Assembly (NCBI GenBank): GCA_963709345.1
Contig: CAVPVX010000001.1
Location: 128,001-192,000 of the forward strand
DNA: 64,000 bases
Reading direction: 5' to 3'
From: an uncultured Actinomycetes bacterium
GTDB taxonomy: Bacteria > Actinomycetota > Thermoleophilia > UBA2241
The position numbers were made by a program, and so were the translations under genes. Shown here one piece after another: positions 46,747-49,039 of this stretch. The notes under the pieces were generated by a model. It saw nothing but the letters and a program-made list of their open reading frames with translations. It was not told the origin of the DNA and did no database searches. Within the stretch, counting starts at the first letter, position 1. Each line of letters starts with the position of its first letter.

Positions 46747-48123
46747 GTGGACCAATCCAGTCGCTACGCCGATCTCACTCTCGACGAGGCCGAACTCATC
46801 AGAGGGGGGCGCCACGTCCTCTGCGCCTACCGCATGAAGCCCAAGACCGGGTACGGCTATCTCGCCACGGCGGCGCACTTCGCCGCCGAGTCCTCCACCG
46901 GCACGAACGTCGAGGTCTCCACCACCGACGACTTCACGCGCTCGGTGGACGCCCTCGTCTACGACGTGGACGAGGCGGACGACCTCATGAAGATCGCGTA
47001 CCCGCTCGAACTCTTCGACCGCAACATCATAGATGGCAAGGCGATGATCGTCTCCTTTCTCACGCTCGCCATCGGCAACAACCAGGGCATGGGCGACGTG
47101 GAGTACGCGAAGCTGCACGACTTCTATGTCCCCCCCGCGTACCTGGAACAGTTCGACGGGCCCGCCAGGAACATCGTGGATTTCTGGCGCATCCTGGGCC
47201 GCCCCCTCAAAGACGGGGGCATGATCGTCGGCACCATCATCAAGCCCAAGCTGGGCCTGCGACCGGAGCTGTTCGCGAACGCCTGCTACCAGTTCTGGCT
47301 GGACGGCGACTTCGTCAAGAACGACGAGCCGCAAGGCAACCAGGTCTTCGCGCCGTATCGGGAGACCATGCTCCTGGTGGCGGACGCTCTGCGGCGTGCG
47401 CAGGAGGAGACCGGCGAGGCCAAACTCTTCTCCGCGAACATCACCGCGGACGACCCCGCGGAGATGGTCGCCCGCGGCGAGACCGTGCTCGAGGCGTTCG
47501 GCGAGAACGCGGACCACGTCGCCTTTCTCGTCGACGGCTACGTGGGCGGCCCCTCGGCGGTCACGACCTGCCGGCGCCGCTTCCCGGACCAGTTTCTGCA
47601 CTACCACCGCGCCGGGCACGGCGCGGTGACCTCGCCGCAGTCGAAGCGCGGCTACACCGCCTTCGTCCTCGCGAAGATGTCGCGCCTGCAGGGAGCGTCC
47701 GGTATCCACACCGGGACGATGGGCTACGGCAAGATGGAGGGTGACCCGAGCGATCGAGCGATGGCCTACATGATCGAGCGCGACGTCGCTGACGGCCCCT
47801 TCTACCATCAGGAGTGGTTGGGGATGAAGGCGACAAGCGCGATGATCTCGGGCGGTATGAATGCCCTGCGCCTCCCCGGCTTCTTCGACAACCTCGGCCA
47901 CGCCAACGTCGTGCAGACCTCGGGCGGAGGAGCTTTCGGCCACCTCGACGGCCCAGCCGCCGGTGCTCTGTCGCTGCGCCAGTCGGTGGACGCCTGGACT
48001 GCCCGCGTGGACCTGCTCGAGTACGCCAGGGAGCACCGCGAGCTGGCGCGCGCCTTCCAGTCGTTCTCTGACGACGCCGACGAACTGTATCCGGACTGGC
48101 GCTCGGTGCTGGGCGAAACCTGA
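46747..48123 (+). CDS. cbbM: ribulose-1,5-bisphosphate carboxylase/oxygenase, form II
   Basis: AGGAGG RBS plus [81 protein letters not shown]; 458 aa. Confidence 0.97.
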
Positions 48124-48145
48124 GAGTCAAGCAAGGGGGAGGCGC

Positions 48146-49039
48146 ATGTCTGCCAAGCACCCGGTGATCGCCGTCACCGGCTCCAGCGGGGCCGGGACGA
48201 CCACTGTGAAGACGTCCTTCGAGCACATCTTCCATCGCGAGAACATCCGCGCAGCAGTCGTTGAAGGGGACAGCTTCCACAAGTACGATCGCGAGGAGAT
48301 GAAGGAGGCCATCGCGGCCGCCGAGAGCAGGGGCGAGCGACCGGTGAGCCATTTCGGGCCCCGAGCCAATCTCTTCGAGGAACTGGAGGCCCTGTTCCGC
48401 ACGTACGGGGATTCAGGGAAAGGACGGCACAGGTTCTACGTGCACAACGAGGAAGAGGCGGCCGTCCGTAACCGCGAGCCGGGTACCTTCACCCCATGGG
48501 AGGACCTTCCTGGTGAAACCGACGTGCTCTTCTATGAAGGACTCCACGGCGGCGTCCGCACCGAGAACGTCAACGTCGCCCGGTATGTCGACCTGCTCAT
48601 CGGCGTCGTGCCGATCGTCAATCTCGAATGGATCCAGAAGATCCACCGCGACACGCGCGCGAGGGGTTACTCGGTCGAAGCCGCGACAGACACCATCCTG
48701 CGACGCATGCACGACTACGTCCACTACGTCACGCCGCAGTTCTCGCATACCCACGTCAACTTCCAGCGGGTGCCCGTGGTCGACACGTCGAACCCCTTCG
48801 TCGCTCGAGACATCCCGACCCTGGACGAGTCGCTTTTCGTCGTCCGCTTCCGTGACCCCACGGGTGTCGACTTCCCCAACCTGCTGGCCATGATCCACGA
48901 CTCGTTCATGTCGCGCCCCAATTGCATCGTCGTCCCGGGCGGCAAGATGGAGATGGCGATCCGGCTCGTCGTTACGCCACTTCTCCAAACGATCATGGAT
49001 CGTCGCAAGAGCGCGAAGCAGGGGGACGGGCACTACTGA
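48146..49039 (+). CDS. prkB: phosphoribulokinase (proteobacterial class I type)
   Basis: MSAKHPVIAVTGSSGAGTT, EGDSFH, HFGPRAN, FYEGLHG, NLEWIQKIHRD..RGYS, FQRVPVVDTSNPF. Confidence 0.95.
   Translation: MSAKHPVIAVTGSSGAGTTTVKTSFEHIFHRENIRAAVVEGDSFHKYDREEMKEAIAAAESRGERPVSHFGPRANLFEELEALFRTYGDSGKGRHRFYVHNEEEAAVRNREPGTFTPWEDLPGETDVLFYEGLHGGVRTENVNVARYVDLLIGVVPIVNLEWIQKIHRDTRARGYSVEAATDTILRRMHDYVHYVTPQFSHTHVNFQRVPVVDTSNPFVARDIPTLDESLFVVRFRDPTGVDFPNLLAMIHDSFMSRPNCIVVPGGKMEMAIRLVVTPLLQTIMDRRKSAKQGDGHY

Follow-up and report, generated by a model that had tools for sequence, protein, structure and literature searches.

A two-gene form II RuBisCO and phosphoribulokinase cassette in a genus of uncultured Thermoleophilia (Actinomycetota)

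The genome G000 of an uncultured member of the Thermoleophilia (3,110,482 bases in 11 contigs, 69% G+C, completeness 98.06%, contamination 1.45%) contains a two-gene operon, predicted from its sequence to be functional and provided with a promoter-like element of its own. [quoted passage not shown] The operon is located in the stretch G000:C1:128001-192000, 64,000 nucleotides in length and hereafter called the window; positions below are those of the window. The pair, referred to as the cassette, is shared with other species of the same genus, bears the signature of purifying selection and appears to have been imported from Pseudomonadota. Its probable function is a CO2-consuming side branch of heterotrophic or mixotrophic metabolism.

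Both genes are intact open reading frames (ORFs) on the plus strand, lying in the order cbbM-prk and separated by 22 nt. The cassette and its upstream region comprise the following features:

46642..46673, plus strand: promoter-like motif, ACGTTTGC, 17 nt, GGGCAAACC, recognized in an alignment of 18 upstream regions
46674..46746, plus strand: leader with a hairpin or palindrome, CCC..GGG, and AGGAGG as its ribosome-binding site
46747..48123, plus strand: cbbM, form II RuBisCO, 458 aa, GTG start, stop codon at 48121-48123
48124..48145, plus strand: spacer of 22 nt with the prk ribosome-binding site GGGGGAGG
48146..49039, plus strand: prk, bacterial class I (R. sphaeroides-type) phosphoribulokinase, 297 aa, ATG start after GGGGGAGG

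The GTG at 46747 was preferred as the cbbM start over an ATG at 46663 because AGGAGG (46735-46740) ends 6 nt before it, because all 18 of 18 relatives have an M-D-Q-S start at the homologous position, and because the longer alternative would begin within the conserved upstream motif.

The product of cbbM scored 851.4 bits against the NCBIfam form II equivalog NF010002 (cut-off 489) and fell under the cut-offs of the form I and form III models, while the product of prk reached 496.8 bits with the equivalog NF011997 (cut-off 362). CbbM carries the carbamylation motif and the loop-6 sequence GKMEG, and aligns without gaps to the solved form II chains 7t1j (831 bits), 4lf1, 9rub/5rub-type and 5c2c (range 756-831 bits). 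The expected residue is present at 17 of the 17 catalytic or ligand-binding positions checked, which in R. rubrum numbering include the carbamylated Lys191, Asp193, Glu194, Lys166/168, His287, Lys329 and others. PRK aligns without gaps to residues 1-287 of the R. sphaeroides enzyme 1a7j (379 bits) and contains a P-loop, GSSGAGTTT, at residues 11-19. Arginine occupies all three aligned positions 221, 234 and 257, which presumably form the NADH site of class I PRK. Class I PRKs are activated by NADH. The cbbM gene is the sole RuBisCO-family gene in the G000 genome; no small-subunit gene lies beside it and no ORF separates it from prk, a genome-wide search for rbcS not having been made. The earlier note on this DNA had described an intact cbbM with both motifs and a proteobacterial-type prk 22 nt away, and that description proved exact. 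It had also described the pair as standing alone, and indeed no gene for LysR/cbbR, CbbQ/O/X, aldolase, fructose-1,6-bisphosphatase (FBPase) or transketolase was found when 20 ORFs from 39.4 to 56.8 kb were scanned with Pfam and NCBIfam.

Across 18 aligned loci, the 110 nt upstream of cbbM contain a conserved ACGTTTGC-N17/18-GGGCACAT arrangement together with the small CCC..GGG palindrome, and AGGAG does not vary in any of the 18 regions. The window has a -35-like TTTGCG at 46645-50 and a -10-like CAAACC at 46668-73. This motif marks the 5' limit of the DNA held in common with the cassettes of other species, homology to G063 and G010 beginning from about 46638, and it probably serves as the cassette's own promoter. 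The analysis demonstrates the identity, intactness, distribution, phylogeny and selection of the genes, and from it we infer transcription from the motif, the activity of both enzymes and the physiological role discussed below. A scan for E. coli-type promoters over 46000-49400, based on the E. coli consensus, reported no site and did not call the motif; the sole terminator-like site found in this interval is inside cbbM on the minus strand. The leader was also considered as a riboswitch or structured RNA, and this was rejected: RNAalifold, applied to 13 of the 18 upstream regions after the five worst-aligning ones (G058, G014, G064, G019 and G056) had been left out, produced 3 pairs only, with no covariation. 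Single folds of 8 of the 18 regions had z-scores from +0.8 to -2.1, and an Rfam search returned only a chance miRNA match below threshold.

Of the 54 species of the genus, 19 have a form II gene scoring above the model cut-off; when the set is restricted to the 21 genomes with a completeness of 90% or more and a contamination of 5% or less, 9 do. In a sample of 401 genomes of the class, form II was confined to the family of the window, where it occurred in 17/48 genomes of the same genus and 1/3 of a second genus; none was found in 321 Thermoleophilia genomes from 11 other families, nor in 400 other Actinomycetota sampled from 248 genera. Metagenome protein collections contained more than 50 clusters (formed at 90% identity) that are at least 82% identical to CbbM of the window, and among the 120 PRK matches listed all were at least 76% identical. 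The question whether the combination is already widespread in this lineage, which the earlier note had named as a refutation of its proposal, therefore has a divided answer: it is common within the genus and in metagenomes, but absent from the remaining Thermoleophilia and Actinomycetota sampled. The general RuBisCO model added two basal species of the genus, G060 and G065, which possess a form I large subunit. The holder in the second genus, G212 (form II model, 483 bits), has an interrupted cbbM, which shifts frame near residue 270, where ambiguous bases and a short local repeat are present; the frame change is either real damage or an assembly artefact.

Within Thermoleophilia, prk directly follows cbbM in every cassette locus, and the surroundings vary from genome to genome. 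When flanks of about 9 kb were compared among 11 genomes, most pairs shared only about 2.3-2.4 kb, which begin 15-110 nt upstream of cbbM and end some 5 nt beyond the stop codon of prk. Flanks were common to two pairs of genomes only (G005/G053 and G019/G056), giving nine contexts in 11 genomes. The blocks that flank the cassette in the window exist in many genomes of the genus, where they lie about 50 kb apart and, with the exception of a cupin gene, are never adjacent to the cassette. The products of the 18 neighbour ORFs scanned at nine other loci include sulfotransferase, radical-SAM, ADH, PEMT, EamA, HAD, PASTA, DJ-1/PfpI and MFS family proteins, with no integrase, transposase or LysR regulator among them. 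Similarly, cbbR, fbp, tkt, gap and fba were not found beside RuBisCO at the other nine loci, the tkt-tal pair of G212 excepted. In that genome (L112, G212:C57:100600-120500, 4602-11100), the cassette is located directly upstream of transketolase and then transaldolase genes, with a divergent cupin gene on the other side. Transposon or integron ends were sought and discarded, only chance-level repeats flanking the cassette. Of the traits expected from a mobile cassette, the occurrence of one unit in different contexts was thus observed, and terminal repeats, an attC-like site, an integrase or a transposase were not.

The CbbM tree comprised 95 rows, namely 18 sequences of the genus and 77 of 80 loci; L012-L014 (duplicates of genus genomes), the truncated gene of G051, the interrupted gene of G212 and form I genes were left out. 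The 18 genus sequences form one clade (SH-aLRT support 99) among sequences of Pseudomonadota, Thermodesulfobacteriota and Bacillota. This clade, with a branch of its own of 0.14 substitutions/site, emerges from a polytomy that also gives rise to a Desulfovibrionaceae/Desulforamulus group and to a large group of proteobacteria. The CbbM of Streptomyces mesophilus is placed elsewhere in the tree, indicating a further separate import. The PRK tree has 55 rows, one for every locus whose PRK match is uninterrupted and 270 aa or longer. In it the cassette PRKs, 19 in number with that of G212, form one clade (100/100), a betaproteobacterial metagenome-assembled genome (MAG) being its sister (100/97). 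They are close to proteobacteria with the same cbbM-prk adjacency (L036, L040, L041, L044 and L083). The nearest CbbM proteins outside Thermoleophilia, 80-81% identical, are those of Rhodobacter capsulatus and a Thermodesulfobacteriota MAG; the PRK of R. capsulatus is only 56-57% identical, the nearest outside PRK being 72% identical. The joining of a resident PRK to an imported cbbM was ruled out, since the form I-linked PRKs of G060 and G065 make up a separate lineage of the PRK tree. The simplest reading of both trees would be one import of a linked cbbM-prk pair from Pseudomonadota. The two genes were probably already adjacent in the donor, and the recipient would be either the ancestor of the genus or that of the genus and its sister genus.

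An rpoB tree was obtained for 33 of the 54 genomes; in the other 21, four of which are cassette holders (G010, G053, G058 and G069), rpoB is missing or split over several frames. Split rpoB genes in G010:C3, G012:C4, G015:C23 and G065:C8 point to indel errors in those assemblies, so that apparent pseudogenes there, and perhaps in the window, need care. On the rpoB tree the cassette occurs within a subclade of 27 rows (15 holders and 12 non-holders) and in none of the six basal rows. The tree requires at least eight changes of cassette state, six of them forced by well-supported branches. The tree of cassette DNA recovers the main rpoB groupings and is broadly congruent with it. For every one of the 105 shared pairs, identity is lower in the cassette than in rpoB (means 85.2% vs 90.0%), and there is therefore no sign of its recent spread. 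In approximately unbiased (AU) tests, the main rpoB clade was not rejected by the cassette (p = 0.115), but the grouping of G064 with G013 and G046 was (p = 0.014). The latter result argues against purely vertical descent and makes one or more old exchanges within the genus likely, although the groups tested were named after both trees had been seen, which weakens these tests. Descent since the import has probably been mainly vertical, accompanied by repeated loss, relocation and one or more within-genus exchanges.

The reading frames of cbbM and prk are open in 18 of 18 full loci, and the median dN/dS ratios, each from 153 of 153 pairs, are 0.142 for cbbM and 0.157 for prk. The cassette is under purifying selection, as had been suspected from the survival of both frames among damaged genes. 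The G+C content at third codon positions (GC3) is 0.90 in cbbM and 0.84 in prk, inside the 5-95% range of the host (0.79-0.94). Horizontal acquisition of a proteobacterial-type pair, proposed in the earlier note, is thus supported by the CbbM and PRK phylogenies it had called for, whereas a recent date is contradicted by the host-like GC3 and by a divergence exceeding that of rpoB.

The G000 genome encodes transketolase (tkt equivalog, 864 bits), ribulose-phosphate epimerase (rpe, 256 bits) and transaldolase (tal, detected by tblastn), and the host pentose-phosphate pathway should accordingly be able to feed the pair, in line with what had been suggested for it. Searches of the genome revealed no match to the [NiFe]-hydrogenase family PF00374, no form I CO dehydrogenase (best score with the CoxL model 154 bits, cut-off 991), no heme-copper oxidase (COX1), no FBPase of class I, II or V, and no homologue of the cbb-type fructose-bisphosphate aldolase, FBPase or CbbX of G060. 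Cytochrome bd is the only terminal oxidase detected. In the genus, class I FBPase is present in 2 of 54 species, just those with a form I operon, and glpX in none of the 54. The single phosphofructokinase (PFK) of G000 (G000:C11:49679-50878; L120 1480-2679) carries GGDD and PKT motifs, which we take to mark pyrophosphate (PPi)-dependent, reversible enzymes able to replace FBPase or sedoheptulose-1,7-bisphosphatase (SBPase). Together with the lack of glpX throughout the 54 species, these motifs suggest that the whole genus performs gluconeogenesis via PPi-PFK.

A [NiFe]-hydrogenase-family gene was found in 15 of 19 holders vs 24 of 35 non-holders, and a heme-copper oxidase in 16 of 19 vs 24 of 35. 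G000 is accordingly a reduced member of the group. The proposal of a low-oxygen organism therefore suits G000, with its cytochrome bd and no heme-copper oxidase, but not the holders in general. Full-length matches to the [NiFe]-hydrogenase large subunit, with scores of 444-479 bits and one in-frame TGA each, were observed at G014:C7:380559-382031, G067:C9:9196-10668, G063:C6:391832-393304 and G005:C5:167888-169360. The in-frame TGA suggests the occurrence of selenocysteine-containing ([NiFeSe]) hydrogenases in the genus; G000 has none.

In the proposed mechanism, the non-oxidative pentose-phosphate enzymes transketolase, transaldolase and ribulose-phosphate epimerase would supply ribulose-5-phosphate, PRK would phosphorylate it to ribulose-1,5-bisphosphate (RuBP), and form II RuBisCO would add CO2 to yield two molecules of 3-phosphoglycerate that could enter lower glycolysis. 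We favour, with modest confidence, the view that in heterotrophic or mixotrophic growth under low oxygen the cassette acts as a shunt or electron sink that recaptures CO2 and spares reductant, and not as a basis of self-sufficient lithoautotrophy, because no hydrogenase or form I CO dehydrogenase was found in G000 and cytochrome bd is its only detected terminal oxidase. Several observations weigh against this role. The evidence on electron donors is limited to hydrogenase and form I CO dehydrogenase, sulfur, formate, iron and nitrite donors not having been searched for. The missing FBPase is not decisive, because a PPi-type PFK may substitute for it. The only aldolase-like gene found in G000 is a distant class II one (71 bits, cut-off 343), and a search for class I aldolase gave no match in G000 but equally none in the control genomes. 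H2-driven or aerobic CO2 fixation is possible in most of the relatives, and G000 may be atypical. In a listing of public runs, the stretch appears in no RNA run, and in DNA runs with small shares only.

The alternative of a complete Calvin-Benson-Bassham cycle supporting autotrophic or strongly lithomixotrophic growth, in which PPi-PFK with transaldolase or a sedoheptulose-bisphosphate route replaces FBPase and SBPase and some other electron donor is used, is the main rival and in our view the less likely of the two. It draws on the presence of tkt, rpe and tal, on the GGDD and PKT motifs of PFK in the meaning given above, on the hydrogenase-family genes of 15 of the 19 holders, four of them full-length with an in-frame TGA, and on the fact that RuBisCO and PRK are the sole cycle-specific enzymes. 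However, G000 has no hydrogenase, form I CoxL, cbb-type aldolase or FBPase, no carboxysome, CbbQ/O or CbbX gene adjoins the cassette, and the full operon of the two form I species (rbcL, cbbX, rpe, fbp, prk and fba) is absent from the cassette holders. It is improbable that the pair is instead a relic in G000, open by chance, unused and in the course of being lost, as hydrogenase and heme-copper oxidase already have been from this genome. The coding-poor stretches and gene fragments around the cassette, the gains or losses on the rpoB tree and the interrupted cbbM of G212 fit such decay; against it stand the intact frames, ribosome-binding sites of both genes, promoter-like motif and checked residues, a G000 branch that is not unusually long in either gene tree, and the clade-wide dN/dS of about 0.15. 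Finally, the proteobacterial type of the proteins and the local GC of 0.63-0.67, at the low end for the genome, might be ascribed to proteobacterial DNA joined to an actinobacterial contig by assembly or binning. We give this explanation almost no credence, since 18 further species of the genus carry the same cassette, on contigs of up to 1.25 Mb, its tree largely follows rpoB, its GC3 is host-like, and the nearest non-Thermoleophilia sequences are just 80-81% (CbbM) and 72% (PRK) identical.

The assignment of the host agrees with the sequence records. Among named records, those nearest to both proteins are MAGs with the title Thermoleophilia bacterium and one with the title Actinobacteria bacterium, and the host blocks flanking the cassette show 72-91% DNA identity to relatives in the genus. 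Short contigs of run X1 span the right junction, crossing the prk stop into downstream DNA (48946-49183 with 1 difference; 49172-49434 with 0), which lends weak support, as run X1 may be related to the source sample. Contigs from four public runs cover the stretch only in fragments. The window belongs to a Thermoleophilia genome; in practice, a chimeric contig and a host among the proteobacteria are both ruled out.

Returning to the preferred shunt, we tentatively suggest that the 2.4-kb unit of promoter-like motif, cbbM and prk may be a self-contained natural RuBisCO module, acting as a redox valve in heterotrophic Thermoleophilia that lack a complete Calvin cycle, and passing as one discrete block from site to site, and now and then from species to species, by no recognisable mobile machinery.

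The form II CbbM of Pseudomonadota, including purple non-sulfur bacteria, resembles that of the window in its gapless alignment, its active-site residues and the lack of a small-subunit gene beside cbbM. The window protein differs in its Thermoleophilia host, its own clade and the absence of cbbR or cbbFPTGA genes around it. Closer in organization are the cbbM-cbbP pairs of Terasakiella sp. PR1 (L041), Rhodospirillaceae/Rhodospirillales MAGs (L040, L044 and L083) and a Pseudomonadota MAG (L036), which have the same gene order with a gap of 14-233 nt and PRKs in the same half of the PRK tree. However, they are not immediate sisters, with identities to the window proteins of 74-77% for CbbM and 59-65% for PRK. 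The form I operons of Thermoleophilia, in Gaiella occulta and in G060 and G065, belong to the same class or genus and include a PRK, 65-66% identical to the cassette PRK in the case of G060 and G065; their RuBisCO, however, is of form I and shares a single operon with cbbX, rpe, class I fbp and class II fba. The operon of G060 extends over 7945-14620 of L160 (G060:C1:494000-513900), and that of G065 is found likewise in L161. In both species the 196 nt following rbcL contain no rbcS ORF, and the ORF of CbbX, as drawn, is extended at its N terminus by about 114 aa that match no family.

According to the available part of PMC12999727, three cultured species of Actinomycetota have a form II RbcL that groups with Pseudomonadota, which was read as horizontal transfer; the genera named there for form IA or II include Flaviflexus, Amorphoplanes, Propionicicella and Propionicimonas. 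These cases are like the window in pairing Actinomycetota with a Pseudomonadota-type form II enzyme, and differ in belonging to the class Actinomycetes and not Thermoleophilia, and in being independent acquisitions; a two-gene unit is not described in that part of the paper. Transfer-acquired form II RuBisCO has thus already been published for Actinomycetota, a phylum whose described autotrophs, according to the earlier note, mostly use form I. For Gaiella occulta, the cultured reference of the class, the part of PMC6741124 covered gives a type I RuBisCO, with CO2 fixation predicted and unproven. The available portions of PMC7901476, PMC9802188, PMC4356161, PMC9326234, PMC12663927 and PMC13454268 contain no link of form II to Thermoleophilia, and a literature search found no paper describing form II in this class or the two-gene cassette; supplementary tables, which might list such MAGs, were not covered. 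In the accessible text of PMC3766054 and PMC13097247, RuBisCO and PRK were added as a reductant-sparing module to the pentose-phosphate pathway of yeast or E. coli, with CO2 serving as an electron acceptor or co-substrate. The same two enzymes are involved; these are synthetic constructs, and the likeness would be an analogy for the mode of working and not evidence for the cassette.

Import of this kind is already known in Actinomycetota, and the cassette adds one more case. The additions made here are a well-documented two-gene unit, its patchy inheritance, its relocation in the absence of mobile-element genes and the presence, in the same genus, of a full form I operon, the full operon in two species and the two-gene unit in 19 being alternative solutions. 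A form II RuBisCO is thereby placed in a widespread uncultured soil- or sediment-type Thermoleophilia genus, while surveys would by default assign such cbbM reads to Proteobacteria. The cassette offers a natural counterpart to the modules engineered in heterotrophs, and with holders and non-holders side by side in one lineage, the role of RuBisCO in a non-autotroph becomes testable. Knowledge of the enzymes themselves is unchanged.

The nearest features on either side of the cassette are the following:

43473..43889, minus strand: cupin gene, the only flank gene linked to the cassette elsewhere (adjoining in G212, about 10 kb off in G063)
44074..46077, minus strand: amidohydrolase (Amidohydro_2) and GNAT-like genes, a host block about 50 kb from the Nramp block in relatives
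about 46152..46389, minus strand: serine-hydrolase pseudogene remnant, a C-terminal piece of a gene of about 596 aa that is whole in the cassette-less G061, G016 and G004
49095..49233, plus strand: fragment resembling a stretch inside a PAS/HD-domain gene of G063 (845 aa)
49293..51071, plus strand: MntH/Nramp transporter and universal stress protein genes, a host block kept in the genus and adjacent to the cassette only in G000

The frame-specific GC profile indicates coding-poor stretches at 46.1-46.75, 51.1-52.2 and 40.3-41.5 kb. The surroundings had been described as decaying genes, which applies to the two gene fragments abutting the cassette and to these stretches, but the nearest whole genes (cupin, amidohydrolase, GNAT-like, MntH/Nramp and universal stress protein) look intact. 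Further downstream are genes for a PocR-PAS-HisKA protein that lacks an ATPase domain, for a receiver protein and for a hybrid kinase. In this region (52184-55130) the PocR-PAS-HisKA protein, possibly a truncated sensor kinase, stops at 54199 without HATPase_c, and the next 450 nt have no match and are followed by the receiver domain.

A segment of 901 bp occurs twice in G000 at 99.9% identity, 68 kb apart, at window positions 44052-44952 and at G000:C1:239246-240146. It spans exactly the Amidohydro_2 gene and about 20 nt on each side; either the single gene was duplicated very recently or the second copy is an assembly repeat.

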